Source: Promethearchaeota archaeon
GTDB lineage: Archaea; Asgardarchaeota; Lokiarchaeia; Sigyniarchaeales; SOKP01
Assembly: GCA_019057795.1 (NCBI GenBank)
Contig: JAHLWS010000065.1
Span: forward strand, 32,001 to 96,000
Direction of reading: 5' to 3'
Length of the DNA stretch: 64,000 bases
Position numbers and translations under genes: made by a program. A model generated the notes under the pieces. It had not been told where the DNA came from. It saw nothing but the letters and a program-made list of their open reading frames with translations, and did not search any database. The first letter of the stretch is position 1, and the number at the start of each line of letters is the position of its first letter. This document shows, one piece after another, positions 36,152-56,766 of the stretch.

Positions 36152-36205
36152 GTGAAAGCTAATAACATAATTATAGTCCCTGAAACTCATTGGGATCGCG
36201 AATAG
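36152..36205 (+). pseudogene. Orphan copy of alpha-mannosidase exon 1 (VKANNIIIVPETHWDRE*)
   Basis: 15/17 aa and 39/51 nt identical to 37642..37692; ends at the codon where the micro-intron sits. Confidence 0.85.
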
Positions 36206-36207
36206 AA

Positions 36208-37365
36208 CTATTTTTGTTGAGATCGAGAGGTTTTTATATCCCATTCCTCACAGAGTTTATAAAAGGAACCAATGGATACTTTAAATTTTTTAATTAAATG
36301 GGAAATTGGATACTTATCAATTAAACATTGTAGATTCTCCTTATTTACTACTGCTTCTTTTAGGCATGGAATCACATTCATATCTCTCTCATTAAATGTT
36401 CTCCTCTTTCTGGGCATACTGTTTTTATAGTTCCTCATCATTTCATTAAATAATAATGCCCCTAATGATAATCTCCAATGTGATTTAGTGGCAATAATAT
36501 TATCAAAATTACTTATTTTACCTTTCTCATATTGAATTTTAACTTCATATTGAATATTTAATTTCAACCTTATTTGTTCGAGAAATTCTTTAGAGCCACT
36601 TGTTATTCTAGTACTGTTAGCATTGCCATCCCCATCATAATAACCAAGAACCCAGGCCAAAAATAACTTATGATTAATAGGAGTTTTTTTATTAAAAATT
36701 ATAGGAATCGATTTTCTTAAAGACTTTGAACTTGAGAACCCAATATTCATTAAATCTTCAACCATTGGTTTACATCTAAAACGCAAATAAGCCAATTGAT
36801 ATGTTCTCCATTCTTCTTTATTTTTCTTTGTTCTATCTCGTTCTTTAATAAGTATAGGATCAAGATTTAGGGCTTTACAAAATCTTATTATTTGATCTTT
36901 ATCCTTAATTGAAAGCTCCATAGATATCAAATACCAAGGTTTTCCCCGATAATCCATTACTACAGAACCGTCTGCGTATAAAAAACCTAACCAATAAGCT
37001 TTTTCAAGTGTATCTACTTTCCTAAAAAAATCAGCTCTAAGATCATCGCTATATTGCTGATTTGAGTATTCTTTCAAGTTTTTATTTAACTCTTGATATC
37101 TTTTAATAAATAATAAACAATTAATTACTTTATTTCCTAAGCTTTTCTTTAGGTTATTTTGGAATTTTTCTAAATTTTGCTCTGAAAATTTGTAATTTGG
37201 ATTATATCCACGAACTTTCGAGTTGGTGATTCTTTGTTTTAGATCTGATAAATAAGTCGATCCATGTCCTAAAAGTATACTAGCTTTGGGTAAAGGTCCT
37301 AACTCATTTACCAAATCGTCTATTAAATTCAAAGTGCTATAAACACTTTCTTTTTTAACAGTCAT
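36208..37365 (-). CDS. Double-motif LAGLIDADG homing endonuclease
   Basis: AYWLGFLYADGSV and AWVLGYYDGDGNA motifs; likely start MTVKK at 37365 (ORF open to 37467). Confidence 0.85.
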   Translation of the reverse strand: MTVKKESVYSTLNLIDDLVNELGPLPKASILLGHGSTYLSDLKQRITNSKVRGYNPNYKFSEQNLEKFQNNLKKSLGNKVINCLLFIKRYQELNKNLKEYSNQQYSDDLRADFFRKVDTLEKAYWLGFLYADGSVVMDYRGKPWYLISMELSIKDKDQIIRFCKALNLDPILIKERDRTKKNKEEWRTYQLAYLRFRCKPMVEDLMNIGFSSSKSLRKSIPIIFNKKTPINHKLFLAWVLGYYDGDGNANSTRITSGSKEFLEQIRLKLNIQYEVKIQYEKGKISNFDNIIATKSHWRLSLGALLFNEMMRNYKNSMPRKRRTFNERDMNVIPCLKEAVVNKENLQCLIDKYPISHLIKKFKVSIGSFYKLCEEWDIKTSRSQQK

Positions 37366-37638
37366 AATTTGAATATGGAATTGATCTTTATAAACTGAAT
37401 AACATCCATAATTTTTTCTAATATCGTTTCTAATATTCATTCCAATAAGAATTAGGGCTCCAATCACGCATTCAAGGTCTTTTATACATAGAAATTAGAA
37501 AACTTATTTAGTTGATATTCACCCTCTTGGGCAGCTTAAATATTGTATTATTCCTCTCTTTTCAGCAAGTAAGCAATATAAAACATCAAAAATTATGAGT
37601 ATTAAACTATGAAAAAGAAAAAAAGATGATAAAAGACT

Positions 37639-40464
37639 ATGGTGAGAGCAAATCATATAATAATTGTTCCTGAGACCCACTGGGACCGTGAAACTTTGTA
37701 TAATTAATATACAAAGCACGATTGGTATCTCCCGTTTCAAGAGTATAGAGCAAAACTAGTTCTCATGATGGATAAGCTCTTGGATATCCTAAGAAGCGAT
37801 CCAGATTATAAAAATTTCACTCTTGATGGACAAACTATTCCGATAGAGGACTATCTTGAAGTCCGACCTGAATTTGAAGATGAGATTAAAAAGTATGTAA
37901 AAGAAAGGCGGCTTTCGATTGGGCCTATGTATATTTTACCAGATGAATTTTTGGTAAGCGGCGAATCTTTGATTAGGAACTTAATAATTGGACACCAAAT
38001 TGCTAAGAGATTTGGAAGGGTTATGAAAGCAGGTTACATCCCTGATCCTTTTGGCCACATTGCTCAATTACCTCAAATACTTCAAGGATTTGAAATCCCT
38101 TCGATTTTATTCTGGCGAGGGTTTGGTAACGAATTCGTAGAAAATAACCTAAACATTGAATTTATTTGGAATTCCCCCGGAGATTCTAATTCTATTTTGG
38201 GAATATTTTTGAAGCAGAGCTACGGTTCGGTTGCTGATCTTAATTTATCAAAAAGAAGCGGAAAATATAAACTGGCGCTTCATAAGATAAAAAGGGTTGT
38301 TTCTGAGTTCGAAAAATTCACAGCTACATCCTATGTTCTTTTGAATAGCGGTTCAGATCATCACGAAGCTCGATCGGAGATTCCTGAAATAGTTAGACAA
38401 TGGAACGAAATGTATCCCGAGAAACTTTTAGAACAAAACGATTTTGAATATTATGTCGATAAAGTATTACATAGTAATCCACAGTTAAAACAGTTTAAAG
38501 GCGAATTAAGAGGTGGAAAGTACGCACATCTACTTTCAGGGGTATTTTCAGCTCGTATGTGGATCAAGCAGAGAAACACGGCAATCGAATATCTGTACGA
38601 AAAATATACGGAACCCTTATCAACAATTATATGGTCTCTCGATAAATATAAGGAATTTAATTACCCTCAAGCTTATATGCTCACAGGTTTGAAATGGCTT
38701 ATCAAAAACCACCCTCACGATAGCATATGTGGCTGTTCTATTGATCAGGTTCACAAAGAAATGGAGACTAGGTTTGATTGGGCGGAGCAAATCGGTAATG
38801 AAGTGTTTAAAAATTCAATATTGTATCTATACAATCTGATTACAGTTGAGGAAGACGAGAAAAAAATTCCGATCGTAGTATTTAATCCTCTTCCTTGGAA
38901 ACGTAAAGATATCGCAAATTTCCACATAATATCCAACACTAAAAAAGCTGGTTTTAAAAATCCAGACGCTTTCAAAATTCTCGACTCCGAAGGAAACGAG
39001 ATCGCATACCAATACGTTCAAATCAGCGAAGAGCCAAGATATAGATTAATTGGATCGGTTAGTTATTATTGCTCGTTTTTAGCCGAGGTTCCTGCTTGTG
39101 GATATAAGTGTTATTATATCGTACCAGGAGAAAAACCCGAAGAACCTGTAGTAAAGAGTAAAAAATTGAAGTTAGGTATAAATAGCTTAGAAAATCAGTT
39201 CTACAAAATCAACATAAGTTTTAAGGGACAAATCGACGTTTTAGATAAGGAAAGTAAAGTTTTGTACGAAAATATTTGTTATTTTGAGGATATAGGAGAT
39301 TGGGGGGATGAATATGACTTTTCGGGGCCATATGAAAATCAAACTGATTTAAAATTCACCTCAGAAGATCTGAATATTCTAGAAATAGCACCGTTTTTAG
39401 ACGGGGTCACCCAAAAAACGATTAGAATAAGAGCAAATCTCAATTTACCTACTTCTTTAACCGAGGATAGATATAGTAGAGACGAATATCTGATTTCAAA
39501 CTTAATCGATATCTATATAACGGTATATAAGGACATTAAACGAGTTGATTTTAAGATTGAATTAGAAAACAATAGTAAAGACCACCGAATACGAGTACTT
39601 TTTCCTTCAAAAATTAAATCTAAAAATGTAGATTCCGATGGTCATTTTTATGTCATTTCGCGAGATGTTGAGATGCCAAAATCTGAGAAATGGGCTCAAC
39701 AACCCGTACCTACTAACCATCAGAAAGATTTTGTCTCTGTTAACGATACATCAAGAACTTTTTCGGTTATAAACAAAGGATTACCCGAATATGAGGCAGT
39801 TATAAATAAAGATGGAACGATTTCGCTAGCTATTACCTTACTGCGGTGTATTGAATGGCTTTCAAGACACGATTTTACCTCGAGAAGAAGTAACGCAGGT
39901 CCGGACCTAAATACTCCCGAAGCTCAATGTCTTGGAAAGCATACTTTCGAACTTTCTCTCGTTATCGAAGGAAACAAACCTAATTGGTTAGATTCGAACG
40001 CTCACATAAAAGGTAAAGAATTTAACAATCCTTTTGAGGTTGTGGTTCCCTCGATAGTTAGAACCTCAATAAGAGCTTCGAATAAAGTCGTTTTAGCCCC
40101 TTTTGGACTAATTTCATATTTTAAACCATCAACTCGTCAACCTTTAAAACCTTATTTACCTACCAAATTAAGCTTCCTTGAAATCGATAACACAAAAATA
40201 ATGCTTAGTGCTTTGAAAAAATCGGAAAAGGGAGAATCTTTAATCGTTAGAGTTTATAACATCTCTTCAACCACTCAAAAAGCAAGGTTAACGTTACACG
40301 AGAAAACTTCCATCAAAAGTGCGGATATTGTAAACTTTTTGGAAGAAAAGCCAGAAAACGAAATTAAGGCGAAAATTGTTTCAAGTAAAGGGAATCATCT
40401 TGATCTAACTCTGGAACCGCACATAATAGTAACGATAAAACTTGAGCTTGATAATAATTATTAA
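37639..40464 (+). CDS. GH38 alpha-mannosidase (MngB-like); join(37639..37692,37723..40464)
   Basis: The spliced N-terminus MVRANHIIIVPETHWDRE|WYLPFQEYRAKL restores the HWDREWY Zn motif; LDGQT, PDPFGH and HDSICGCS motifs also present. Confidence 0.9.
37693..37722 (+). other. Putative 30-nt BHB mRNA intron
   Basis: CGUG-AA^A-CUUUGUAUA-AUUAA-UAUACAAAG-CACG-AU^U: perfect 9-bp stem, 4-bp central helix, two 3-nt bulges; contains an in-frame TAA. Confidence 0.85.
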
Positions 40465-40613
40465 ATAAAAAAAATTTTCTTTTATTTTTTAAAAATCCTA
40501 AAATCCAGTTTAAAATATATCTATTTTTAATAATTTTAAATATGTGATACTCTTTTTAAAGTATCATCAACTTTTTAGCTAACTTCTTAATAAAATAAAA
40601 GGTCGAAAAACTT

Positions 40614-41747
40614 GTGAAAAATTTTGATATTATTGTTATAGGCGCAGGACCAGGAGGTTCTGTTGCAGCTAAAGTAGCCTCTGAAAACGGATATTCGACT
40701 TGTATCATTGAAAAAGAAATGCTTGGTGAGAAAGGAAGATATAAGGCATGTGGAGGAGCTACTGCGTGGGAACTAATAGAAGAAATTGATTACCCAGAAG
40801 AAAAAATTGGTAGGGTAATTGAATCTTTAGAATTGCACCATGTTGATGGAGAAACTTATTCTAAAAAAGGTAAAGGCGCTGTCGTTTGGCGAAGCACTTT
40901 TGATAAGTTTTTAACTGACATGGCTGTCGATAGTGGAGCCTTATTAAAAGAGAAAGAGCTTATGATTAACATTGAAAAAGTTGATGATTTTTACAAAATC
41001 AGTACTAATAAAGATAAATATACTGCAAAATATATAATTGCCGCTGATGGCGTTACTTCACCTACTTTAAAATTGCTAAATTGGCCTTTTTTCAAAAGTG
41101 AAGACTTAATTTTAACTATTACTAAAGAGATGAAAACTACTAAGTCCAATATAGATAAAGTTCTTGGACATGATACAGTTCATTTGTTTTTTGGTATTGA
41201 AAGCCTTATTCGTGTTGGTTATGCTTGGTTGTTTCCAAAAACTGAGAGGATTACAGTAGGATGGGGTAATCAAATTAATTTAGTAAAAAATTCAAGAGAA
41301 GAATTTAAAAAATTTCTAAAGCTCCCACTTGTTAAACTAGCGTTAAACAATTCAACGATGGAAACCTTTAAACCTCATCTAATCCCAGTAGGACTTAGAT
41401 CGAAGCTTTATGAGGAGAATCTGTTTGCTGTGGGTGATTCAGGGGGAATCGTTGATCCTATAAGCGGAAAGGGAATTCCCTATGCCATGATGTCTGGTCA
41501 GTTTGCTATTGAAACTATTAAAATGTGCGAAGAAAAAGATAGAATGGATAGGTTAGGAAGTTATTATGAAAGATCTTTAGATAGAAAGTTTTTAAAAATA
41601 TTAAAGGCAAAACGGATTTTAAGAGACACCATTTTTCAAAGTGATGAAAATTTGAAGAAATTCTTATCGTTGTGGGAAAACCATCGTAGTTCAGAAATTG
41701 CCATGAAAAATTTAATGGATCAAGTGAGTCTATATGAAATTTACTGA
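40614..41747 (+). CDS. Geranylgeranyl reductase-family FAD oxidoreductase
   Basis: GAGPGG, KACGG, ADG, GYAWLFP and GDSGGIVDPISGKGI motifs. Confidence 0.85.
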   Translation: MKNFDIIVIGAGPGGSVAAKVASENGYSTCIIEKEMLGEKGRYKACGGATAWELIEEIDYPEEKIGRVIESLELHHVDGETYSKKGKGAVVWRSTFDKFLTDMAVDSGALLKEKELMINIEKVDDFYKISTNKDKYTAKYIIAADGVTSPTLKLLNWPFFKSEDLILTITKEMKTTKSNIDKVLGHDTVHLFFGIESLIRVGYAWLFPKTERITVGWGNQINLVKNSREEFKKFLKLPLVKLALNNSTMETFKPHLIPVGLRSKLYEENLFAVGDSGGIVDPISGKGIPYAMMSGQFAIETIKMCEEKDRMDRLGSYYERSLDRKFLKILKAKRILRDTIFQSDENLKKFLSLWENHRSSEIAMKNLMDQVSLYEIY

Positions 41748-42801
41748 ATATTTGAGTTTTTATAAACCTAAGATAAACGATGCAATAGCATTAATCTATA
41801 ATAGACAATTAAAAGAAGTAAAAAATTCGTTCTTAAAAGTCTATTATTCAGAATTACGCGACTATTTTTTAACGGGAGGAAAGAGAATCCGTCCTTTGCT
41901 TTGTATCGCTACTTATAACGCTTTTAGTGGAAAACAAAATGACGACATTATCTTTCCAAGCGTTGGTGTCGAATTTCTACATAACGCTACTTTAGTCCAC
42001 GATGACATTATTGATAAGGATAATTTTAGACGAGGAAAACCCGCGTTTCATTATAGATTTAGGCAATTTCACATAGAAAATAGCCTTAAAAAAATATCAG
42101 CTGAAGATTATGGTAATTCGATAGGCATTATTGGGGGAGATTCCGCATTTTTTCTAGGTCTTGAAGCTTTTTTTTTTAACAATTTTGATAATAACTTTAA
42201 TCTCAGAGCAATTCAATATTACGAACATGCTTTTAGAGAAATAGTAAATGGAGTTTTGATTGAAATTGATATGGTAAACAAGAAAAATCTAAAAATGGAA
42301 GATTATATTCATATGGTTTCTCTTAAAACGGGAGCTTTACTAGAAAAATCAATATTAATCGGTGCTAATTACGCTAAAGTGGAAGAAAAATATAAGTCAT
42401 ATTTATCGATTTATGGAAAAAACTTAGGAATTATATTCCAGATAATAGACGATATTTTAGGGACCTTTGGTGACGAAACAACAACGGGAAAACCAATAGA
42501 CGGAGATATTAGAGAATCTAAAAAGACATGTTTATTGATAGAAGCCAATAATATGTTAAAAGGAAACGAAAAAATCAGACTCAATGAATTAATCGAAAGC
42601 ATTAATATGACTCAAGATGAAGTTCAAGAAGTAAGAGAATTGTTTCTTAAAGCAGAAGTCATTAATCATAGTAAAAAGCTAGCAGAGACTTATTATAAAG
42701 AAGCTCAAATTGCCCTTGAAAAATTAAAGCCAGTAATTCACAATTCAGAGTTAGAGTTTTACGAAAACCTATTAAAATTTGTATTAGAAAGAAAATTTTA
42801 A
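41734..42801 (+). CDS. idsA: Polyprenyl (GGPP) synthase
   Basis: GGKRIRP, DDIID...RRG, KTG and FQIIDDILG motifs. Confidence 0.88.
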   Translation: MKFTEYLSFYKPKINDAIALIYNRQLKEVKNSFLKVYYSELRDYFLTGGKRIRPLLCIATYNAFSGKQNDDIIFPSVGVEFLHNATLVHDDIIDKDNFRRGKPAFHYRFRQFHIENSLKKISAEDYGNSIGIIGGDSAFFLGLEAFFFNNFDNNFNLRAIQYYEHAFREIVNGVLIEIDMVNKKNLKMEDYIHMVSLKTGALLEKSILIGANYAKVEEKYKSYLSIYGKNLGIIFQIIDDILGTFGDETTTGKPIDGDIRESKKTCLLIEANNMLKGNEKIRLNELIESINMTQDEVQEVRELFLKAEVINHSKKLAETYYKEAQIALEKLKPVIHNSELEFYENLLKFVLERKF

Positions 42802-42937
42802 GTTTTTAATCTTATTTGAGGTGTTTAAAAATTTTATTTTTTTTTTAAAAAGAGTAACCTCCACTCTTCTATTTGGTCAAGAAGGCGTTCTCTTCTTATT
42901 TTATTAAAGATTTATTTTTAAAATATCGAATCTTATA

Positions 42938-43864
42938 TTGATTATGGGACTATTTACCGCGAAAAACATAATAAGTTTTGTTTCCATGGGCCCATCATTA
43001 TTACAGTCAATTGTAAGAAATGTTCCGTTATATGTAAATTATGATTTAACTTGGCAATGTAACTTAAAATGTAAGCATTGTTATTTTTTCTCATCAACAG
43101 CGAAATTAAAAAATAAAAGAACGGAATTATCGGACGAAGAATGGATTAGGGTTTTTAAATACCATAGAAATTTAGGCACAAAAATAGCTGTTTTAACCGG
43201 TGGAGAACCTACTTTAAGAATGGATGTTATAAAAGAAGCGATTAAAATTTTTCCCTCAGTTCAGGTTGTATCAAATGGAGTTATAAAAATACCTCGATTT
43301 AATGAATATAAACAACCGAAATACTGGGTAAGTATAGATGGTACCAAGGAAACTCATGACAAGATAAGAGGAGCAAGGGTTTTTGATAAAGTCATACAAA
43401 ATATTCGGGAGAACAATCCGGTCGTTGTATCAACCATCATGACATTAAATTATAAGGAAATTGAAGATATTGTTAAGATTGCTCACGATAATGGTGCTTC
43501 TGGATTAGTTTTTCTATTTTATACCGACTATCCTGACAGCCCACTTTTAATAAAAGGTAATATATTAAAAAAGACAATAAAAGACATTTTAAAAGTAATG
43601 CGTGAATACGGAAATTTTATTTGTTATTCCAAAAAAATGTTAGAAGTATACCTGTCAAAAGAATTTGTGCCGCATTGTATATTTAAAACTGGTCAAATAA
43701 AAAGTTTCTATCCTGATGGAAAACAAAAGTTTTGTGTCATGGGAAATTCACCACTTTTATGTGACAATTGTGGATGTATCGTGCCAATTGCTGCTTATGC
43801 CTTATTTAAGAAATTTGATTCCAGTACAGTTAATAAAACGAGAAAATTGTTTAATTTCATGTAA
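42938..43864 (+). CDS. Radical SAM protein with C-terminal Cys cluster
   Basis: CNLKCKHC, TGGEP and C-terminal C..C..CDNCGC. Confidence 0.88.
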   Translation: MIMGLFTAKNIISFVSMGPSLLQSIVRNVPLYVNYDLTWQCNLKCKHCYFFSSTAKLKNKRTELSDEEWIRVFKYHRNLGTKIAVLTGGEPTLRMDVIKEAIKIFPSVQVVSNGVIKIPRFNEYKQPKYWVSIDGTKETHDKIRGARVFDKVIQNIRENNPVVVSTIMTLNYKEIEDIVKIAHDNGASGLVFLFYTDYPDSPLLIKGNILKKTIKDILKVMREYGNFICYSKKMLEVYLSKEFVPHCIFKTGQIKSFYPDGKQKFCVMGNSPLLCDNCGCIVPIAAYALFKKFDSSTVNKTRKLFNFM

Positions 43865-44122
43865 TTTTTGTTATTTTGCAAAATTGATTTTTTCTACGAT
43901 GCCATCTACAGCAATAACATGGAGCCCTATGAGATTTATAGAAATAAAAAGATGGATATTGAGGTTCCGGCGAAGATTTGCAAGAATATCAAAGAGAGAT
44001 ACAAAAACCACTAATTCTGTCGTTCTAAATGAGATAGATTTAATATTTAGTTAACATTTTAGATTCATACTCTTTAATAATAAAAAAATAAATAAATGAA
44101 ATAAAAAAGAATTGAGCTTAGA

Positions 44123-45385
44123 ATGAAAAAAATAACTGGAGTAGATATTTTAGACGAAGAGGTAAAGGAAAAATTGACAACTAAAAATATCTATAAAATT
44201 TTTAATAATTTTATCATGCCCCTCATTACCGAAGAAGAGAGAGATTTTTTGGAAGAATTAGAACTTTTTTTGCTCAAAAATATTGAACCTAATATAGACC
44301 TCAATACTGAAGTATACGAACTTTTTCCTATTCTTGGAAAAAAAAATTATATTCAAAGATTAAATAATTTTGGTGATTGTAAAAGGTGCAATATGCGATA
44401 CGAGATGCTACTAGCTATGGCTACATCGATTGTCGATCCTGAACTAGACTTGGCTAGAGTAGTAACTGGCGTAATATTTGCAAATCCTTTATTCCAATTT
44501 GGTAAAAGCGATCGTATCACTGAAGTTTTACATCAAATCGTAACGGGTAAAAAGATCGGATGTATATGTATAACGGAAAAGTACCAAGGGTCTGATGCAG
44601 TTAACATGAAAACTAAAATTCAGGACAAGGGAGATCATCTAATTATGGATGGGGAAAAACTATACACCACAAATGGACCTAACGCGGACTATTTTATAGT
44701 TTATGGCGTATCAGACACATCAGATCCTCGAGGCACAATGTACCAAGTCATTGTTGAGCGAGATTTTGAAGGTTTAGAAACTAACAGACTCGGTATTCAA
44801 TCCGTTCCCCGGGTAGAAATTGGACAAACAATTTTTAATTCCGTTAAAATTCCCAAAGAAAATGTACTTGGAGCCAAAGGTCAAGGATATAAAAACCTTT
44901 TTTCTGGGCTAGTTGCCGAAAGGTGCGCCATCATAGGTTCTAGCCTTGGTATCGCTTGGCTTACGGCAATTACAGCTCTTATATATACAAACATTAGGTC
45001 TCAATTTAATCGCCTAATATACGACTTTCAAGGTGTTTCCTTTCCCATTACCCAGTTAATTATTGAATTAATGGCCGCTACGGAGTTAGGTTTCACAAGC
45101 GCGACAGAATACGATAAAACTATAAAACGTCAACAATTTGAACAACAGAAATACATTAAGTACAACGCATCGTTTAGTTCAGGAGCAAAATTCCTTGCTT
45201 CGAGCTTGGCTCACAAAATCTCGTATGAAACTCAGCAATTATGCGGAGGAATTGCTTTCACAGATAACCTGCGAATCGATAAAGCCTTAGAGGTTGCAAA
45301 AGTGCAAGAGATTATTGGTGGGGCTAGAAATATACAACTCTATTTAGTGAGTCGAGCAATAAAAGATATGATTTCTTTTTTGTAA
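44123..45385 (+). CDS. Acyl-CoA dehydrogenase family protein
   Basis: CITE..GSD, GEKLYTTNG, R.QF, QLCGG and IIGGA.NIQ motifs. Confidence 0.88.
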   Translation: MKKITGVDILDEEVKEKLTTKNIYKIFNNFIMPLITEEERDFLEELELFLLKNIEPNIDLNTEVYELFPILGKKNYIQRLNNFGDCKRCNMRYEMLLAMATSIVDPELDLARVVTGVIFANPLFQFGKSDRITEVLHQIVTGKKIGCICITEKYQGSDAVNMKTKIQDKGDHLIMDGEKLYTTNGPNADYFIVYGVSDTSDPRGTMYQVIVERDFEGLETNRLGIQSVPRVEIGQTIFNSVKIPKENVLGAKGQGYKNLFSGLVAERCAIIGSSLGIAWLTAITALIYTNIRSQFNRLIYDFQGVSFPITQLIIELMAATELGFTSATEYDKTIKRQQFEQQKYIKYNASFSSGAKFLASSLAHKISYETQQLCGGIAFTDNLRIDKALEVAKVQEIIGGARNIQLYLVSRAIKDMISFL

Positions 45386-45407
45386 TAGCTCTAATGTTCT
45401 TTTAAAA

Positions 45408-46025
45408 TTAATCAGTAACCTCAGATTCACTAAGTTGTTTAATTAATATCGGTATAGCTTCATCAATCGTTTCTTTAACTTTAGCACCTAAACATACTAT
45501 TTTTCCTGAAGAAAAAATTAAAAAAACTACCTTTGGCTCCTGCATTTTGTAAATTGCTGCGGGAAATACTTCAGGTTCGTACATAACATTGTCCATCATA
45601 ATAGTTAACATATTCAAATCAACATTCATATTCAAACTACTAGTTGCTACAATATTTTGAATGATAATTTTTGGATTTTTTATTTTGAATCCAATGTTTT
45701 GTATCTTTTCAATCGCTTGTTGAGCTGCTAAGTTAGCATCTGTGGTTTTTTTAAGACCAGTAATTACCATTTTACCCGAAGAAAAAATTAATAAAGTAGC
45801 ATGTGGATTTTCAAGTCTCATAATAAGCCCTGGAAAACGATCAGGATTATATTCCACATTGGAGGTCCCTTGAATTATTTGATTTAAATCAAGCGCACAT
45901 TCAATTTCGGTAATAACTGTAGCTACAACATTTACAACTTTATATGAGATTTCAAGCTTATCACCGCGATGATTACTCCCCAAATCTCCAATTGTAAGCT
46001 TATCCTCAAGGTTTTCTTCGCTAAT
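45408..46025 (-). CDS. tbp: TATA-box binding protein
   Basis: Two repeats, NVVAT...YNPDRFPGLI...LIFSSGKMVITG and NIVAT...YEPEVFP...IFSSGKIVCLG; start is TTG 45983 or ATT 46025. Confidence 0.93.
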   Translation of the reverse strand: MSEENLEDKLTIGDLGSNHRGDKLEISYKVVNVVATVITEIECALDLNQIIQGTSNVEYNPDRFPGLIMRLENPHATLLIFSSGKMVITGLKKTTDANLAAQQAIEKIQNIGFKIKNPKIIIQNIVATSSLNMNVDLNMLTIMMDNVMYEPEVFPAAIYKMQEPKVVFLIFSSGKIVCLGAKVKETIDEAIPILIKQLSESEVTD

Positions 46026-46256
46026 ATTTTATCTCCTCTATATATTTGTATTAAACTGATGTATTATGACTCAAAAAAAATTTAATAAGATGAATTATAT
46101 TTAAAATAATTAATATTTTATAAATTAAATGAACCATCCCAATTTAACTTTTTCATCATTTTTTTTTTAACATAATTTAGAGAAAAATAGATAATATCTA
46201 AAAATAATTAAAGAATTATATTATAACTCTAATTAATTAAAATAACTTAAACTCCA

Positions 46257-46823
46257 TTGGTGAAAAATTTGGTTTTATTGGTTGCTATTACGGGCGCTAG
46301 TGGTGCTAACCTAGCGATTATCTTGCTACAACAACTGAAGAAAAAAGAAGTTGAAACTGAATTAATAATATCAAAAGTAGCTGAGAAAATCATTGACATT
46401 GAAACTGATTATAAACTAACTGAAATAATTGATTTATCAACAAAGTATTATGATGTTGATGATTTAACGGCAAACCCCGCCAGTGGTTCTTATAAAATTG
46501 ATGCAATGGTAATTATTCCGTGCTCGATGAAATCCTTGGCTTCTATTGCTAATGGTTATGCAGATAACTTAATAACCAGAGCCGCAGATGTAACAATTAA
46601 AGAACGAAGAAAACTCATCTTAGTAGTTCGAGAAACTCCTTTCAGTGCGATTCACCTTGAAAATATGCTTAAATTAGCAAGAATTGGAGTTATAATCGCG
46701 CCTCCAATTCCTTCTTATTATATCAAACCTGAGAGTATTAATCAACTTAACGAATATTTCGTAGGAAGAATACTTGATCATATAGGTATTGAAAGCGGGA
46801 TAAAGAGATGGGGGAGCTATTGA
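46257..46823 (+). CDS. ubiX: Flavin prenyltransferase
   Basis: AITGASG, PASGS, PCSMKSL, RAADV and RETP motifs. Confidence 0.93.
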   Translation: MVKNLVLLVAITGASGANLAIILLQQLKKKEVETELIISKVAEKIIDIETDYKLTEIIDLSTKYYDVDDLTANPASGSYKIDAMVIIPCSMKSLASIANGYADNLITRAADVTIKERRKLILVVRETPFSAIHLENMLKLARIGVIIAPPIPSYYIKPESINQLNEYFVGRILDHIGIESGIKRWGSY

Positions 46824-48721
46824 TTTACCCATTGATATAGTTCTCCAAGCAGAACTCGCTTGTCCTTATTGTCCTTAAGATTTTCTACGTTTGTTATATT
46901 CGTTAACCATAAGGAAGAACGCAACTCGTCTTTCAATGTTTTTATTTCTTTAATTGTGTGAATAGAAGTACTGTTGTTGTAATCTTTCCAAGCGGATAAT
47001 AGAAATTTATAAGCAAATCCTCCGATATCAGCGCCTAATGCGATGCTTTTAGCGATATCTACTCCATTCCTTAGACCACCAGTTGCTATAATCAATTTTT
47101 TAGTAACTTCTCTTACATAAATAATGGTTAGAGGTGTGGGGATACCCCATTCTCTAAAAGAATCTGCGAGTCTTCTCGTATATTTTTCAAAACTAAAATT
47201 ATCTCGGTGAGATTCAATTGCAGCAAAACTAGTACCTCCAGTGCCTCCGACATCAAATCCATCGAAACCTATTGAATCAAGACTCAAAGCTAATTCCTTA
47301 TTGAAGCCAGTTCCCACTTCTTTGGCGATTATTGGAATGTTAATTTCTTTTCGAATTTTTTGAAATTTTTCAAAGAAATTTTTATAAGATATGTTTCCGT
47401 TGCTTTGGACTAATTCGTGTAAAGCATTAAAATGAATGGCCATTACATCTGCTTTTACCATTTCAATACATTCAATAAAGTCTTCTTTTTTAAAAGTGGA
47501 AGAATTGATTTGGCCGATTCCTATATTTCCAATTATTGGAATGTTAGGCGCAACTTCACGAACAATCTCAAAAGACTCAAGGGTAGAGGGATCTTCCAAG
47601 CCTATGCGTTGACTTCCTACGCTCATTATAATGTTTTCTTCTTCTGCAGCTTTAGCTAAAATTCTGTTTATTGCTTTAGAGATTGGATGCCCACCGGTTA
47701 TAGCGGAAATACAAATTGGAGCGGAAATCTTTTTATTAAAAAACATTGTTGCGATGTCAATATCATCTAATTCGACTTCCGGAAGCGAATGATGAATTAA
47801 TTTTATGTCATCAAAATAGTTTTTTACGTGTTGGACATTAGATATGATTGGAATCTTGAGGTGTTCTAACTTTCTCATATAAATCTCTGATAACCTTTTT
47901 TCGTCATGAATTCCACTAATGTTCGTACAGATTAATTTTTGATTGCTTAAGGCCTTAAAGATGTTACCGTCAGTCAGACCGTTTATAACCTGAACTGGAA
48001 TATTTAATCTACAAATTTCTTTAATCGCATGAATTTTTCCTCTAATACTTCCAGTAACATCAATCTTATTTCCTAAATCGGCTAATTTAATTTTATCTAA
48101 CTCTTCAAGACTAATTTCTGAGGCTAATTTTATATTTTTTTTATCATTTTTAATATCTTCAACAAAAATTCCATCTTTGTCAACAGCAAAAATAACTTTA
48201 GAAATACAATATTTTTTCAAGTTTTTACACAATTCTAAAATTATGCGATCTCCAGAAATTATTGAAAAATTGCCTTCTTTATCAAGAATAATATCCCCAT
48301 ATAAAACGGGTAGAATTCCAAGATCAAGCGAAGTTTCAATTGGCTCAATAGATTCAAAAAAAATCTCGTTTAAATGTTTGATAAAAATACTTGAAGGTTG
48401 AATGGAAAGAGCGGGATACTTATTTTCTAAAAACTCTTCAATTATTTGCGAATTGAATTTAATCATCGCTTCGTGCGTTTTAGTTAGCCCAAATATCTGA
48501 TTCTTAATAGAAATATTGAGTCCTTGAGAAATGTTATATTTTTTAGCAATCGGGTGTCCAAAGGAACCTCCTCCATGGATTAAGATTAACTTTTTATTAG
48601 CATCTATTATTTGTTGAATTGCGCTTTTTACAACTTCTTTTCTGATAGAAAAAGGAATATTTTTATCAGTTAATAAACTTCCACCCAATTTTAACAGAAA
48701 TATTTCGTTACTATTTTTCAA
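46817..48721 (-). CDS. Fused isopentenyl phosphate kinase + type 2 IPP isomerase
   Basis: N-half KLGGSLLTDK, HGGGSFGH, SGD, DVTGS; C-half RKLEH, SAITGG, GSQR, KEVGTG, GGTSFAAIE, TGGLRNG. Confidence 0.9.
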   Translation of the reverse strand: MKNSNEIFLLKLGGSLLTDKNIPFSIRKEVVKSAIQQIIDANKKLILIHGGGSFGHPIAKKYNISQGLNISIKNQIFGLTKTHEAMIKFNSQIIEEFLENKYPALSIQPSSIFIKHLNEIFFESIEPIETSLDLGILPVLYGDIILDKEGNFSIISGDRIILELCKNLKKYCISKVIFAVDKDGIFVEDIKNDKKNIKLASEISLEELDKIKLADLGNKIDVTGSIRGKIHAIKEICRLNIPVQVINGLTDGNIFKALSNQKLICTNISGIHDEKRLSEIYMRKLEHLKIPIISNVQHVKNYFDDIKLIHHSLPEVELDDIDIATMFFNKKISAPICISAITGGHPISKAINRILAKAAEEENIIMSVGSQRIGLEDPSTLESFEIVREVAPNIPIIGNIGIGQINSSTFKKEDFIECIEMVKADVMAIHFNALHELVQSNGNISYKNFFEKFQKIRKEINIPIIAKEVGTGFNKELALSLDSIGFDGFDVGGTGGTSFAAIESHRDNFSFEKYTRRLADSFREWGIPTPLTIIYVREVTKKLIIATGGLRNGVDIAKSIALGADIGGFAYKFLLSAWKDYNNSTSIHTIKEIKTLKDELRSSLWLTNITNVENLKDNKDKRVLLGELYQWVNQ

Positions 48722-48734
48722 TTTTAATTAACAC

Positions 48735-49701
48735 TCATCCTATCATTGTTCTCCAGGCGTCATAGCCTTCTTTTTCGATAGCCTTGGCGATAGATTCTTG
48801 TATTTCTTCATTTTCTGCTAAAGCGATTACTAAACCACCCCGACCCGTCCCCGTCATTTTAGCTCCAACCGCTCCATTTTTTAGTGCTATTTCTACCAAT
48901 TTATCGTTTATTTCTCCTGAAACTGTGATTCTTTGAAGTAATTTGTGGTTTTGATTCATTAATTTGCCTATAGTGGTAATATCACCTTCAAGCAATGCTT
49001 TTTTTGCTTTTTCTGATAAATCCTTATATTCGTTTAGTATCTTCTCAAATTCTTCTGAATTAGTTTCCTTTAAACGCCGAACATCAGCAACTACTTCCGT
49101 TGTTGAAGCTGTTATTCCTGAATTTGCGATTGTCAAGAGCATCTTTCTTGGCGATTGAAGGAAGTCCATCGTATTTTTTCCACCACTTAAATTTTTCACA
49201 AACCAAATCAAACCACCATAAGTCGAAGCCGTGTTATCAATACCAGAAGGGGTTCCGTGATAAGCCTTCTCTCCTTCGTAAGCGGCTTCGTTTATCTTTT
49301 CATCGTCTAACTTTAGATTAAAGCTATCGTTGATTGCACGAGCGAGAGAAGTACATTGAGCGGCAGAAGCACCAACTCCACTCGTAGCGATTAAATCTCC
49401 TGTGAAAGTGATTTCAAGTTTTTGACTCTCTGTATCTATTTTTAAATAATGGACTACATTGCGAATAGATTGCATTGCCTCATCGTATTTCTTTTTTTTA
49501 TAACCCGGTGTAGCGGGTCTCTGATCGTCGACAGTCCAGTTTTGTCCATTAACAACTTTAACATCTGCGGTTGTATAGGAACCTAATGCCGAAGCAATAG
49601 CGGGAAGACCATAAACTACAAAATGATTGCGTCTACTTCCGAAGTTGGAAGTAAATTTCGCCAAAAAGAATGGTCTTACCATATCCTTTTCCAGTTCCCG
49701 T
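48735..49701 (-). CDS. mvk: Mevalonate kinase; join(complement(49657..49701),complement(48735..49625))
   Basis: Spliced N-terminus (M)GTGKGYGKTILFGE|HFVVYGLPAIA; GVGASAA, HGTPSGIDN and KMTGTGRGG motifs; probable ACG start after GGAGGTG. Confidence 0.88.
49626..49656 (-). other. Putative 31-nt BHB-like mRNA intron
   Basis: GGCG-AA^A-UUUACUUCC-AACUUC-GGAAGUAGA-CGCA-AU^C: 9-bp stem with one G-U pair, 3 of 4 central pairs; frameshifts the gene unless removed. Confidence 0.8.
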
Positions 49702-50091
49702 TTATTTCACCTCCACAGTACCTTTTGAACCATTTACAATTATTTTTTGTCCAGTTTTAATACAATTAATATCAATTTTATCTACGCATGGAATTTCACT
49801 AATTATGCAACCCACCGCTATTATAGTATCGATCTCTTCGTTTACGATTGCTACTGGAGCCATGTTGTTTTTTTTCATCCGGTACATCGTATACGACCCT
49901 ACAGTCGAGCCTTTACCAGTAGGAAAGACTAGAACTTTTCCTGTAATGGATTGTCCCTCAAGATCGTGCCCAACCTCAACAACCATACCGGTGTCCGGAT
50001 CTATGCCACCATAAAATGAAATCCCATCTTTAGTTACTATCGCTTCTGCCTCAGCAATTCCTTTATAGATTTTTCTTCCTTTTAGCTTCAT
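49702..50091 (-). CDS. Phosphomevalonate dehydratase small subunit (AcnX swivel domain, DUF126)
   Basis: ISFYGGIDP and GKGSTVGS motifs; MVA cluster context. Confidence 0.88.
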   Translation of the reverse strand: MKLKGRKIYKGIAEAEAIVTKDGISFYGGIDPDTGMVVEVGHDLEGQSITGKVLVFPTGKGSTVGSYTMYRMKKNNMAPVAIVNEEIDTIIAVGCIISEIPCVDKIDINCIKTGQKIIVNGSKGTVEVK

Positions 50092-51296
50092 TTAATCGCC
50101 TCCTCAACGCATTGTTCCATTGAGCCAATTTTTACTTTGAATTTATTCTTTGCGCGTCCGTAATAACACGCCTTTGCTGAATCTACCATGATTCCCTTGA
50201 AGCGCCCCTTAATTGGAGCAACAACGCAACAGGTATCTGCAGCAAATTTTGCTCCAGCATCTTCAATAATTTTAGAATAACCAGCTTCGTCTGCGATTTT
50301 CTTTGTAGGTCGAGCAGTAGTAATCCAAAATTCTTTCTTTACTTTTTTTCCTTCTAACAATTTTGCAATTTTAGCGATTTCGTGAATTGAAGCGTGAGGA
50401 CAACCTAGACTTACAAAATCTATCTCAAGATCATCGTCAATAAGCTCAGCACGAGTCTTATCTAAATCGTCCTGATTAATTTCAATAACAATTTCACTTG
50501 GTTTAGTGTATTTATTATACTCGGGAGTAATTCCTTCCATATGGAATAATGCTGTTCCACCATAGGTAGCGACGGAAGCGCAAAAAGACTTAAGCTCTTC
50601 AACGGTAGCAGAAGGGATTCCCGCAATATAAGGGACTTTTTTTCCTAGTTTTACTAGTTTATCGCCAATCAATTTTCCCAGCACGCCAAATTCGTCAGTA
50701 TTTTTAATCGAAGCGTTTATCTTAAACAAGACTTGGGCGTGACGATTTTCGTCCAAATGATAACCGTATTTAGGCGTTTTACCGGTTAAAGCCGCTGCCA
50801 ATGCGCTTGGTCCCCCCTCTCGATTCGTTCGAGCCCCAATAACGGAGTTGGAATAACAAACAGCGCTACTTTCGGCCCAAGCAATGTGTTGGCCATAATG
50901 AGGCGCGTTTCCAATTAAATAAGGTGTACAAGAACACGTCGTAATTATTCCCATTTTTGCAAAAACATCTATAGCACGATTCTGATTTTTAGCAAATTCT
51001 TCGTCAATTCCTAACGCTCTCCAATTTTCCCGATCCATTCCAGCGGGATTTAAAGTAGTTAAAACTCTGACCTTCCCATCTTCTGCCATTTCGTTTAAGA
51101 ATTCCAACCCTGCTTCGCCAAGATTAGCGTAGGAAACTCCTGCTATTTGAACTCCATGAACATCAACCATACATTCAGCACCAAATATTTCGCCTAATGT
51201 GGTTAATATTTCCATGGATTTCTGGACGGACTTTCCATGCTTTCCATCAAGCATATCTTTTTCTATTTGTTCTAATCTCATAATCCTCAATTGCAT
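50088..51296 (-). CDS. Phosphomevalonate dehydratase large subunit (aconitase X, DUF521)
   Basis: TLNP, CSCTPY, WAESSA, GARTNREGGPS, LGCPH, DTC and DSAK motifs. Confidence 0.9.
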   Translation of the reverse strand: MQLRIMRLEQIEKDMLDGKHGKSVQKSMEILTTLGEIFGAECMVDVHGVQIAGVSYANLGEAGLEFLNEMAEDGKVRVLTTLNPAGMDRENWRALGIDEEFAKNQNRAIDVFAKMGIITTCSCTPYLIGNAPHYGQHIAWAESSAVCYSNSVIGARTNREGGPSALAAALTGKTPKYGYHLDENRHAQVLFKINASIKNTDEFGVLGKLIGDKLVKLGKKVPYIAGIPSATVEELKSFCASVATYGGTALFHMEGITPEYNKYTKPSEIVIEINQDDLDKTRAELIDDDLEIDFVSLGCPHASIHEIAKIAKLLEGKKVKKEFWITTARPTKKIADEAGYSKIIEDAGAKFAADTCCVVAPIKGRFKGIMVDSAKACYYGRAKNKFKVKIGSMEQCVEEAIK

Positions 51297-51300
51297 TTTA

Positions 51301-52602
51301 TTAAAAATATTTGTTCAAATCTACTCTTGGGAAATCAGCTCTATCAAAACTCTTTCCTTTAGTTATAAGTGGTTTTGTTAAATCAAATCCCATTTTAGTT
51401 GTCATTTTCGTTCCCGGTTCTGCGCTAGGATCTAAACTACTTCCGGGTTCCTTATCTTTAATTATCATATTAACATTCCCTTGAAAGCGAGTTGCCATTG
51501 CCCATTCCACAGATAACGGGTCGTAAATATCAATATCTTTATCTACAATAAATATGTGTTTGCAACTACTATGGCCAATAAATGCACCATGAATAGCTTT
51601 TTTACCATCTTCTTCTGAATTTTTATCAATTTGTACAATTGCATGTAGCCATGAACATCCTCCAGGATTTATATTAACATCTAAGCACTTAACTCCAGAT
51701 TCGTTCACTTTATTGAAAATAGTGGGTTCTCTTGGCATACCCATCAATATTTTATGCTCAAGCGCACCAGGTAATAAAGCTTGCCAAATCGCGTCCTTTC
51801 TATGAGTTATTTTTTTAACTTCAAAAACTGGTTCTTCTCTTACAACATCATAAGTTTCTGTTAAGTCGACAAAAGGCCCTTCAGCGTGTTTTTCTTCTAA
51901 ATAGACTCGCCCTTCTAATACAAATTCTGCTTCTGCAGGGATTAAAAGATCAACTGAATTTGCTTTAACAACTTTTATTGGCTCTAATGCATTTGCAATA
52001 TGTAATTCATCAACTCCAATATCCACAGAAGTAGCACCGGCAATTAAAATGTTAGGAGTGTTACCTATACAAAAAGCAACATCTAATTCGCTATTTTTTT
52101 CTAAAAACGTATGAAAATGTCGACCTCTAACTATTCGAGTAGAAAATTTGTCTTTGGAAAATTGCATAGCCCGATGGAAATCCATGTTTTGTCCATAATC
52201 GGGGTCTCTTGTGATTACGACAGCAGAACTTACGTAATTCCCGCCGTCCTTTTCGCAATGAAATAAAATTGGTAATTTATCTAAATCTACGCTTGATTCT
52301 ATAACTTCTTGACAAAGAGCGTTTGATACGATTTCTGGTTCTGAGCGTTCATTTATTGCTTTTGAAAGCATTGGTATGATGTCTGCGGGAGTTACATTGA
52401 AATACGAAGCAATTACATTCTTAGTACAGAACATGTTGCCAACCAACCTGAATTCAGATTCTTTTACATTATTAAACATTAAGGGGGTTGGTTCTTTCTC
52501 TTTTAATATACCAGAAATCTCTAATTTCTTCGAAGTCTCGACATCTACCTTTTGAAGGAGTCCTTTCTCATCAATTTTATTTATATAATCTCTAAATCCC
52601 AT
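51301..52602 (-). CDS. UbiD-family decarboxylase, probable anhydromevalonate phosphate decarboxylase
   Basis: EGPF.D and GSSLDPS motifs; lies between HMGR and AcnX. Confidence 0.88.
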   Translation of the reverse strand: MGFRDYINKIDEKGLLQKVDVETSKKLEISGILKEKEPTPLMFNNVKESEFRLVGNMFCTKNVIASYFNVTPADIIPMLSKAINERSEPEIVSNALCQEVIESSVDLDKLPILFHCEKDGGNYVSSAVVITRDPDYGQNMDFHRAMQFSKDKFSTRIVRGRHFHTFLEKNSELDVAFCIGNTPNILIAGATSVDIGVDELHIANALEPIKVVKANSVDLLIPAEAEFVLEGRVYLEEKHAEGPFVDLTETYDVVREEPVFEVKKITHRKDAIWQALLPGALEHKILMGMPREPTIFNKVNESGVKCLDVNINPGGCSWLHAIVQIDKNSEEDGKKAIHGAFIGHSSCKHIFIVDKDIDIYDPLSVEWAMATRFQGNVNMIIKDKEPGSSLDPSAEPGTKMTTKMGFDLTKPLITKGKSFDRADFPRVDLNKYF

Positions 52603-52692
52603 AAATATCGTCTCAAAATTTTATTTATCGTGATGCAGTTATCAATTATATTACTTTTTATTAGAGGAGTTTATGAAACACTTTTTATAAAA

Positions 52693-53985
52693 CTAAAGGT
52701 TTTTACTTTTAACTATTTCCTTTAAAACTTCCTTTGCGTAATCTACTCTTATTTTTTTATCTTCTACTATTTTATTTGCAACCTCTTCAATCAAATTATC
52801 AGGTACACCTGCTAATTTCGCAATATTACGAGAGTGAAGTGTCATATGACCTTTTTGGATACCTTCTGATGCTAAGGCTCTTAAGGCGGCTACATTCTGG
52901 GCTAAACCTAACGCTGCAGCAATTTGAGATAACTCTTCTGCACTCTTAACACCTAAAATTTTCAATGCTAGACGTGCCATTGGATGGATTTTTGTCATTC
53001 CTCCAACAATTCCAAGAGCTAGAGGGACTTCTATCTCGCCAACTAAATTACCGTCTGAGTCAGATTTAAATTTCGTAAGAGGTTTGTATTTGCCACTCAA
53101 AGAAGCATAAGCGTGAGCTCCTGCTTCAATAGCACGAGTGTCGTTTCCTGTTGCTAAAGTTAACGCTATTATTCCATTCATTATCCCTTTATTATGGGTC
53201 GTTGCCCTATAGGGATCGGCAAGCGCAAATTCATAAGCGTTTAAAATGCCCTCAACTACTTCTTCTCCACCCAACAAGTTCTTATCAAATACTGCTTTAC
53301 ATTTCGCAATTCGATGTGTAGCCAAGTTGGATACGATTCGCAAATATATCTTCCCTTCACTAATTTCTTCTATATAAGGACTTACGGCTTCAGCCATCGT
53401 ATTTACTACATTAGCACCCATAGCGTCTAATACATTAACCAGAAGGTGAAGGATTACCATTTTGCCTTTTTTGGTTTCTATTTCTCGAACCTCTATATCT
53501 AGAGCACCGCCACCTAACTTATTTAGTAAGGGGTCTTGCTCATTTGCAATTTTTAAGATTTTTTCCTTATTTCTCACTAAAATTTCCTTAGCAGCAACAA
53601 TATCTTTTAATTGAGTTATTTGTATTTGAGAAATCATGATTGATTTAACTTCTTCAGACTGAAAACCCCCGTTTTTTCTTGCTATCTTAGCTGCGTTAGA
53701 AGCAGCGGCCACAACTGAAGGTTCTTCAATCACCATGGGCAAAATATAATCTTTTCCATTGATCCTAAAGTTTAAAGCAATACCCAAGGGCAATTGGTAA
53801 CTCCCAATTACATTTTCTATTAGCGTGTCAATTTGACTGGGCGTAAAATACCCCAAAGCTTGCAATAGTTTAACTTCTTCCTGTTTTAAGTTAATTAATT
53901 TAGCTAATTGATGTTGGCGTTCTTCTAAGGATAGCTTATAAAAACCCGAAATATCTGAACGAATTTCTTGCATCTTTTTATTCAC
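52693..53985 (-). CDS. HMG-CoA reductase (class II)
   Basis: ENVIG, EEPSVVAA, DAMGAN, THNKGIMNG, GNDTRAIEAG and GHMTLH motifs. Confidence 0.93.
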   Translation of the reverse strand: MNKKMQEIRSDISGFYKLSLEERQHQLAKLINLKQEEVKLLQALGYFTPSQIDTLIENVIGSYQLPLGIALNFRINGKDYILPMVIEEPSVVAAASNAAKIARKNGGFQSEEVKSIMISQIQITQLKDIVAAKEILVRNKEKILKIANEQDPLLNKLGGGALDIEVREIETKKGKMVILHLLVNVLDAMGANVVNTMAEAVSPYIEEISEGKIYLRIVSNLATHRIAKCKAVFDKNLLGGEEVVEGILNAYEFALADPYRATTHNKGIMNGIIALTLATGNDTRAIEAGAHAYASLSGKYKPLTKFKSDSDGNLVGEIEVPLALGIVGGMTKIHPMARLALKILGVKSAEELSQIAAALGLAQNVAALRALASEGIQKGHMTLHSRNIAKLAGVPDNLIEEVANKIVEDKKIRVDYAKEVLKEIVKSKNL

Positions 53986-54119
53986 ATTAATCTTAATTTG
54001 AAATTATTTATATCATCTTCTAATTGTTTTGCCTTAGATAATTTTGAACTTTTAGTTGATAGGATAGGAAGGTGAAAAATAGAAGATGTCATTATTAACT
54101 ATAATTCTAAAACATAAAT

Positions 54120-55748: not shown

Positions 55749-56040
55749 TAGGGATCTCTCTTTTATCGCTGGTTCTAATTAGTTCGATTATTAAATTGAA
55801 TTTATAAATGTAATGTTTATTTATTCAAAAACTTATCTAGTTAAACATTTCTTAATATATGAGGTTCTTATATAAATTAAATGAGGGAATTAATATTAGC
55901 AACAGTTCAAATTCTTAAATGTGGTAATGATCCAAGAATTTGAATTGTAATTCAAATAATAAAAATTTATAATAAATAAATCTCATATTCCTATTAATAG
56001 TAGTATCAATTGTAGTAATTTCTCTAAGGGTTAAATTTTC

Positions 56041-56766
56041 TTGGAAGAATTAAAGGACATACCCGCAAATAAATTGCCTAAACACATTGGTTTAATTCTA
56101 GATGGTAATCGTAGATGGGCAAAAAAAAATTTGCTTGAAGCAAATGTGGGCCATTTAATAGGGTACGAGAATTTAAAAGAGAGGTTATTTGACTTTTTTG
56201 ACGCAGGAATTCATTATTTGAGCATTTACGCCTTGTCGCTTGAAAACGCACGGAAAAGAAGTGTTAACGAACTTAGATATATTTTTAAGATAATTTTAAA
56301 AGCAGTGGACACGGTAATAAATGAATCAACTGTAAGAGAAGAGAAAGTCAAATTTAACGTAATTGGCCGAATACATTTGCTACCTGAAGATGTCCAGGAG
56401 AAAATCAAAGAATTAATTGAATTTACAAAGGACCATAACCAAAATTTCATTAACTTGTGCATTATGTATGACGGCCAAGAAGAAATCGTAGACGCTATGA
56501 AAAAGATAACGGAGGATAATATAAAATCCGAAGATATTACGCGAGATTTAATCAAGAGTTATTTATATACGAAAAGTTTTCCTGAGGTAGATTACATAAT
56601 TCGCACTGGCATGAGCGATGGCGCTAGAATCTCGGGATTTCTGTTATGGGACGCATCTTATGCAGAGTTCAAATTTAGAACTGACCTATGGCCTGATTAT
56701 AATAAAGAAATGATAATTGAAGATATTAAAGATTATTTGAAGAGAAATCGAAGAAAAGGTAAATGA
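56041..56766 (+). CDS. uppS: cis-prenyltransferase (undecaprenyl/dolichyl diphosphate synthase)
   Basis: HIGLILDGNRRWA, RISGFLLW and RRKG motifs. Confidence 0.92.
   Translation: MEELKDIPANKLPKHIGLILDGNRRWAKKNLLEANVGHLIGYENLKERLFDFFDAGIHYLSIYALSLENARKRSVNELRYIFKIILKAVDTVINESTVREEKVKFNVIGRIHLLPEDVQEKIKELIEFTKDHNQNFINLCIMYDGQEEIVDAMKKITEDNIKSEDITRDLIKSYLYTKSFPEVDYIIRTGMSDGARISGFLLWDASYAEFKFRTDLWPDYNKEMIIEDIKDYLKRNRRKGK

Follow-up and report, generated by a model that had tools for sequence, protein, structure and literature searches.

Predicted tRNA-type introns in protein-coding genes of a Promethearchaeota archaeon and a probable homing route for their spread

We analyzed a 64,000-nucleotide stretch (the window) of the genome of a Promethearchaeota archaeon (assembly GCA_019057795.1, referred to as G000; 4.95 Mb, 31% GC), corresponding to positions 32001–96000 of contig C65 (JAHLWS010000065.1). 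Two unrelated genes in the window, encoding a GH38 alpha-mannosidase and mevalonate kinase (MVK), are each interrupted in a conserved motif by a short insert that folds as a bulge-helix-bulge (BHB). Judged from their structure, their boundaries, and the enzymes encoded in the genome, the inserts are very likely introns of the tRNA type that are spliced out of mRNA. G000 contains at least 20 such introns. We assign a probability of about 0.85 to the explanation as a whole, namely BHB splicing combined with collaborative homing for at least some of the introns. The two interrupted genes are organized as follows:

37639–37692, + strand: GH38 alpha-mannosidase exon 1, 18 codons; 37687–37690 form the exon strand of the BHB central helix
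37693–37722, + strand: GH38 BHB intron, 30 nt, with an in-frame TAA; 37717–37720 pair with the exon
37723–40464, + strand: GH38 exon 2, 913 codons
49657–49701, − strand: MVK exon 1, 15 codons, ACG start
49626–49656, − strand: MVK BHB intron, 31 nt, frameshifting
48735–49625, − strand: MVK exon 2, 296 codons

Both inserts follow a GAA codon, at codon 18 of GH38 in the motif HWDRE^WY and at codon 15 of MVK in the motif ILFGE^HF (the caret marks the insertion). The GH38 intron folds into a central helix CGTG/CACG flanked by the bulges AA^A and AT^T and topped by a 9-bp hairpin. In MVK, the central helix is GGCG/CGCA, with three of four positions paired, the bulges are AA^A and AT^C, and the hairpin again measures 9 bp. 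Each insert thus displays a 4-bp central helix (3–4 pairs in MVK) between two 3-nt bulges, with a weak outer helix, as in the relaxed form of the motif. Folding z-scores are −5.7 for GH38 and −5.2 for MVK (200 shuffles). The predicted cuts, placed after the second base of each bulge, coincide in both inserts with the boundaries deduced from intron-less orthologues. Excision yields a GH38 protein of 931 amino acids, whose annotated open reading frame (ORF) begins only at position 30 of the PF01074 profile, and an MVK protein of 311 amino acids, matching the 311-codon open frame of intron-less orthologues. Folds, homology boundaries, and intron-less orthologues therefore agree with the first-pass annotation of this DNA, which had proposed two BHB micro-introns in these unrelated genes. 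Relatives cover 49 kb of the window, and no other disruptive BHB insertion was found there.

The ACG start codon of MVK (49699–49701, − strand) sits behind a strong GGAGGTG ribosome-binding site. It is common to nine related genomes, intron-less ones included, and the others start with ATG, TTG, GTG, or CTG.

Orthologous alleles from related genomes reveal presence and absence of the introns at exact sites. The MVK intron is present in 33 and absent in 29 of 62 distinct alleles across this genus of Promethearchaeia (Lokiarchaeia), and the GH38 intron is present in 8 and absent in 17 of 25. PFK shows presence and absence at two sites, and uL11 has four distinct intron sites in the genus, and several species have two in one gene. 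Each of the 70 intron alleles in the tally is disruptive; MVK introns measure 28, 30, or 31 nt, and every one breaks the reading frame. The exons on both sides are free of stop codons and have a low ratio of nonsynonymous to synonymous polymorphism (pN/pS), indicative of purifying selection. Specifically, exon 1 has a pN/pS of 0.15 in MVK (33 intron-bearing alleles), 0.04 in GH38 (8 alleles), and 0.05 in uL11, which argues for splicing, since exon 1 would be useless in an unspliced message. The same genes bear on an explanation in which a small mobile element left the hairpins behind as relics, and the interrupted genes are either pseudogenes or kept in use by translation restarting downstream. 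An alternative ATG frame at position 49682 and the unusual ACG start of MVK speak for it. Against it, the 49682 frame is missing in several intron-bearing relatives, where the open frame spans 296–298 codons, and lacks the conserved N-terminal lysine motif. The stop-free exons under selection, the single-copy core genes affected (uL11, EF-1alpha, EF-2, eIF2gamma, and TBP), and the lack of any sequence or terminal repeat common to the inserts make this explanation highly improbable.

Splicing at the RNA level is further suggested by the way the helix is maintained. Synonymous exon bases that complete the helix are fixed in 31/33 intron-bearing versus 5/29 intron-less alleles of MVK, 8/8 versus 5/17 of GH38, and 11/11 versus 5/18 of uL11. 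Among 24 distinct MVK introns, 84% of cells are paired, compared with 40–48% in slid controls (3/500 shuffles), and four pairs are altered on both strands of the helix. A compensated variant, GGTG/CACT, is also found among intron-bearing alleles. Close relatives carry intron-less alleles, as would be expected if the insert were removed from DNA in part of the population by programmed excision. The tolerated G-U pairs and the conserved bulge geometry point instead to an RNA structure, and the inserts lack common recombination sites, leaving excision from DNA with very little probability. Alternatively, the ribosome could skip the insert by translational bypassing or frameshifting, with the RNA uncut. 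Known bypassing signals comprise a hairpin and a stop codon after the take-off site, and both features follow the corresponding site here. The take-off and landing codons do not match, however (GAA versus GAT in GH38, GAA versus AAT in MVK), a codon is split by 12 of 18 introns, and lengths of 28, 30, and 31 nt occur at a single site. The conserved pairing connects the exon to the intron end, as required by the tRNA-splicing endonuclease EndA, and we regard bypassing as scarcely credible.

The genome encodes two EndA paralogues (alpha on C69, beta on C74) and the ligase RtcB (on C70). EndA alpha contains the Tyr-His-Lys triad, finds its best PDB matches in the Aeropyrum-type enzymes 3p1z and 3ajv, and aligns to them over the Crenarchaea-specific loop (CSL), including its Lys and Arg. 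The CSL gives Aeropyrum EndA a broad substrate range (PMC3241643), and an EndA of the type found in G000 cuts the cbf5 pre-mRNA (PMC2738675). The second paralogue, EndA beta, lacks the His and fits a structural subunit. G000 thus encodes RtcB together with an EndA predicted to cut relaxed motifs. Short introns interrupt many of its tRNAs at positions other than the standard one, and several anticodons are wrongly assigned by ARAGORN.

The inserts of the window belong to a genome-wide family, as the first-pass annotation had anticipated. We surveyed G000 by comparing proteins of relatives with its genome, using no motif. The survey drew on ~1.9 Mb from six relatives, with no genome sampled beyond ~15%, which makes 20 introns a minimum. 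Disruptive insertions of 24–45 nt score as BHB in 10 of 15 cases, versus 1 of 39 in-frame insertions; seven of the ten are free of motif pre-selection, some loci of the survey having been targeted. Fourteen introns are backed by intron-less homologues, located in MVK, GH38, uL11 (two), PFK (two), CdhD, CobO, a ferredoxin-domain protein, a V4R protein, a cold-shock protein, alcohol dehydrogenase (ADH), NadE, and a small membrane protein. In NadE, the two halves cover profile positions 4–145 and 145–242, and excision rejoins the host sequence. Removal of six further introns restores known motifs (thiolase, acs, Elf1, HppA, chelatase, and FwdB). No second intron was found in hppA. Relatives add introns in TBP, UppS, EF-1alpha, EF-2, eIF2gamma, a small GTPase with four introns, and other genes, bringing the genus-wide total to more than 30 intron sites with up to four per gene.

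All of these introns consist of a single hairpin of 28–38 nt and encode nothing. Their placement in conserved motifs bears out the earlier prediction, whereas the finer rules drawn from the two window inserts hold for those two but do not extend to the family: only 3 of 18 introns follow GAA, and positions in the first 20 codons give way to CdhD codon 277, thiolase codon 310, beyond codon 400 in acs, and codon ~660 in hppA. Phase 0 also fails as a rule, with six introns in phase 0, eight in phase 1, and four in phase 2 (n = 18). Scanning with a BHB descriptor had been proposed as a check on the family. The narrow consensus of the first-pass annotation yields 27 genome matches, among which GH38 and MVK are supported and one more is a candidate. 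Relaxed descriptors coupled to ORF rescue do not rise above shifted-excision controls (140 versus 142–171; 27 versus 21–28). The family consequently rests on homology, because descriptor scans stay at background. Early strict matches on C30, C38, C77 (position 119953), and C78 (position 137264) were dropped, as excision restored no long frame. A separate candidate at C77:196698–196730 (− strand; 33 nt, good BHB) joins a 246-aa ORF and one with a NUDIX domain, and lies downstream of an ISL3-type transposase.

The GH38 locus carries traces of how an intron may arrive. At the 5' end of the gene and upstream of it, we identified three features:

36152–36202, + strand: scar, the old intron-less GH38 exon 1, 17 codons; its end coincides exactly with the intron-site codon, and TAG comes next
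36203–37722, no strand assigned: inserted cassette of 1,520 nt, comprising the nuclease gene, a new upstream region, a replacement exon 1, and the intron
36208–37467, − strand: free-standing gene resembling those of LAGLIDADG homing endonucleases, two motifs; start codon uncertain

The LAGLIDADG gene stands head to head with GH38. Over 306 nt, the scar together with the DNA upstream of it shares 91.5% identity with the intron-less G026 allele (L032). The current exon 1 is 72–81% identical to its closest relatives, versus 92–95% just past the intron. Together, the scar and the foreign exon 1 imply that the 1,520-nt unit entered an intron-less allele, its left junction lying at the intron site. 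Relatives with a 94–96% identical protein display three states: no intron (G026), an intron behind the native exon 1 with the nuclease absent (G005 and G009), and the full cassette (G000). The CobO intron has a second, decayed scar 124 nt upstream of it. One clear case and one decayed case thus indicate, indirectly, that intron, nuclease, and flanking exon were co-converted.

The same association recurs elsewhere. Homologues of the LAGLIDADG family occur at many loci in 27 of 42 genus genomes. A nuclease adjoins GH38 at 4/8 intron-bearing versus 0/17 intron-less loci, and PFK at 2/8 versus 0/17. Three of the four LAGLIDADG-family loci in G000 lie less than 2 kb from an intron (chance 0.009 per site); the search had started from one of these three. 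As a test of prediction, 29 loci were fetched from other genomes by the nuclease alone, and three GH38 loci were set aside. Nine of the remaining 26 have an intron in a neighboring gene within 1.5 kb, compared with ~0.02 expected per locus on a generous baseline. Six intron-bearing targets are found at these loci: EF-1alpha, EF-2, eIF2gamma, PFK, the four-intron GTPase, and one other gene. Three nuclease loci of G060 had homology coverage too low to count. In G000, the ADH and chelatase introns each have a member of a second, HNH-like family directly upstream, and members lie beside introns at 3 of 21 other loci. About one-third of G000 introns have a free-standing nuclease nearby.

Several observations concern these nuclease families and their surroundings. 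The HNH-like protein has Atlas matches below 0.9, which serve as a lead only. The GTPase gene with four BHB introns (L359, G012:C35; 204 aa) is directly downstream of a LAGLIDADG gene. Proteins of 720–1130 aa on C41, C54, C69, and C78 (three loci) of G000 share an N-terminal region with the nuclease genes; several are preceded by a small acidic gene of ~200 aa, and most have no intron found nearby. At L377:6–2234, a 743-aa protein with four DUF4379 zinc fingers and a CapR-like domain lies just upstream of an intron-bearing thiolase, and possibly represents a third nuclease family.

These data suggest a two-part mechanism. The pre-mRNA would fold as a BHB, an (alpha-beta)2 EndA would cleave each bulge behind its second base, and RtcB would ligate the exons. 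A free-standing nuclease encoded beside the host gene would cut an allele that lacks the intron, at the site of the intron or close to it, and repair would copy in the intron, destroying the cut site, often with the nuclease gene and a replacement exon. The nuclease gene would later decay or disappear, and the intron would persist because only its exact removal from a catalytic motif is tolerated. The cassette, the scar, and the co-occurrence are observed and cleavage is predicted; we consider this homing route probable. The earlier suggestion of a homing origin therefore stands in part: the endonuclease is free-standing beside the gene, outside the intron. No endonuclease ORF lies within the introns, and no long intron form was found at 62 MVK, 25 GH38, and 29 uL11 loci, with an aligner limit of 45–70 nt and every usable locus explained.

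Alternatively, the introns could be spliced but have arisen and spread by local duplication or reverse splicing, followed by repeated loss through cDNA, with nucleases merely adjoining conserved genes or arriving later because the intron makes the allele immune. A quick version of the MVK tree contains 13 state changes, at least four of them forced by well-supported branches, and repeated loss could explain these. The central helix is 67% GC compared with 31% for the genome, and Gly/Arg/Cys-rich motifs may suit folding alone. This explanation must accommodate a scar that ends exactly at the intron site, a cassette that brings foreign exon 1 and intron together, the second scar at CobO, and the LAGLIDADG family never being found beside an intron-less GH38 or PFK allele (17 + 17 loci). 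We consider spread without nucleases unlikely, and by a wide distance the least unlikely of the alternatives discussed here.

Several findings weigh against splicing combined with homing. About two-thirds of G000 introns, MVK and uL11 included, have no recognizable nuclease nearby, as the nuclease-free explanation would expect, and neither the LAGLIDADG nor the HNH-like family was found beside MVK or uL11 loci. Such introns fit loss of the nuclease after spread, and they fit a second route too. The LAGLIDADG protein matches PF14528 weakly (E 4.9e-6) and gave no match in a PDB search. Some helices are weak, with 2/4 pairs in the PFK intron PFK-b and in UppS, and an outer helix that often has 0–1 pairs. 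The model leaves the first origin of new introns unexplained, and the introns lack likeness to each other or to other DNA of the genome (best z 3.4, 171 pairs). Finally, the genomes that supplied the alleles are related, and the counts are not independent tests, so that p-values drawn from them are overstated. For the genus, we lean toward a broader view, in which mRNA splicing by the tRNA machinery would be routine and obligatory for dozens of core genes, the introns would be the immunity half of two-part selfish elements, several nuclease families would keep introducing and propagating 30-nt introns in catalytic motifs, and the window would catch one insertion in the act.

Among the closest known counterparts is the cbf5 intron of Crenarchaeota (Desulfurococcales and Sulfolobales; Watanabe 2002; Yokobori 2009, PMC2738675). 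Like the G000 introns, it is a short BHB or relaxed BHB that interrupts a coding sequence within a catalytic motif, is gained and lost in a patchy manner, and goes with a hetero-oligomeric EndA. It differs in occupying one site in one gene, with splicing demonstrated, whereas G000 has at least 20 sites and the genus more than 30, with up to four per gene, three phases, unrelated sequences, and predicted splicing. The catalytic Asp motif of cbf5 in G000 itself lies within one open frame, with no intron. In the 16S rRNA of Thermoproteales, hairpin BHB introns (<50 nt; Pog.S1213/S1205) are co-converted by the LAGLIDADG enzyme of a neighboring intron (PMC4496867). As predicted for the window nuclease, an enzyme encoded nearby cuts the intron-less site and mobilizes an ORF-less hairpin; there, however, the hairpin sits in rRNA and a different intron, 8 nt distant, encodes the enzyme, whereas in G000 the hosts are mRNAs and the free-standing gene lies 0.1–2 kb away. 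Collaborative or intronless homing in phages, as by T4 mobE, pairs free-standing endonucleases with ORF-less group I introns (PMC2988022). The free-standing nuclease, the ORF-less intron in a conserved motif, and flank co-conversion are alike, but those introns are group I ribozymes, whereas G000 has 30-nt introns predicted to be protein-spliced on a cellular archaeal chromosome, with exon replacement and a scar. Introns of group I or group II have a ribozyme core of hundreds of bases, unlike the short single hairpins described here.

An mRNA BHB is also cut by EndA in the 5' untranslated region of Haloferax HVO_1309, as established in vitro and by circular RNA (PMC7714728); unlike the G000 introns, this is a single case outside the coding sequence. 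A 2026 preprint on Asgard tRNA introns describes repeated BHB gains, two EndA paralogues, no copying between introns, and no general arrival route; it covers tRNA only and reports no mRNA introns. The 2020 paper on HVO_1309 names cbf5 as the sole earlier mRNA case (PMC7714728), and cbf5 is the one spliced archaeal coding sequence in the literature we searched. No publication on Asgard mRNA introns was found in that literature, which excludes most subscription journals. Relative to it, the scale of the G000 introns and their probable route of spread are new. The cassette and scar offer a concrete, testable route of intron gain, the question left open for Asgard tRNA introns by the 2026 preprint.

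The trait looks lineage-specific, and the suggestion that many Asgard genes may be affected is not supported as an ancestral feature. uL11 is unbroken in five more distant genomes, four of them single-contig, and a query with the LAGLIDADG family of the window found no match in four of the five. No MVK intron was found in the Thorarchaeota or Hermodarchaeota genes compared. The proposed bearing on HAC1/XBP1-type splicing is likewise unsupported. HAC1/XBP1 splicing removes a short mRNA intron and joins the exons with tRNA ligase, the only step in common; the cuts are made in stem-loops by IRE1, an unrelated nuclease, under stress regulation, with no BHB and no EndA. Descent of eukaryotic introns or of HAC1/XBP1 splicing is thus not shown by the G000 introns. 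If our explanation is correct, a lineage near the eukaryotic ancestor would rely on mRNA splicing as a constant element of gene expression, with tens of introns in genes for ribosomal proteins, translation factors, TBP, and central metabolism. Annotations of truncated or absent genes in these genomes, including the markers uL11 and EF-2, would then be mistaken.

Some further observations concern the sequences compared and the rest of the window. Contigs titled Hodarchaeota, Thorarchaeota, Bathyarchaeota, Odinarchaeota, and Nanopelagicaceae nest within the Promethearchaeia MVK clade at 69–85% identity (L262, L264, L277, L278, L280, L285, L300, L309, and others) and are probably mislabelled assemblies. 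An intron candidate at 9411–9440 was rejected, as alignment to the orthologue shows no insertion and the break comes down to one TAA. This TAA lies inside the conserved gene concerned (~9245–10105, + strand), near 9426, at a position occupied by a sense codon in the G023 orthologue; it is a point nonsense change or an assembly error, and no intron. UppS (~56034 onward, + strand) is unbroken in the window. Its copy on G008:C41 contains a 30-nt, stop-containing insert in the DGNRR motif, with two Watson-Crick pairs only in the central helix. MVK and UppS belong to an isoprenoid cluster (41734–56900) that also encodes geranylgeranyl diphosphate (GGPP) synthase, UbiX, a fused isopentenyl-phosphate kinase (IPK)/IDI-2 protein (46817–48721; split in G008), aconitase-X subunits, and UbiD. 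This cluster is consistent with the archaeal modified mevalonate pathway.

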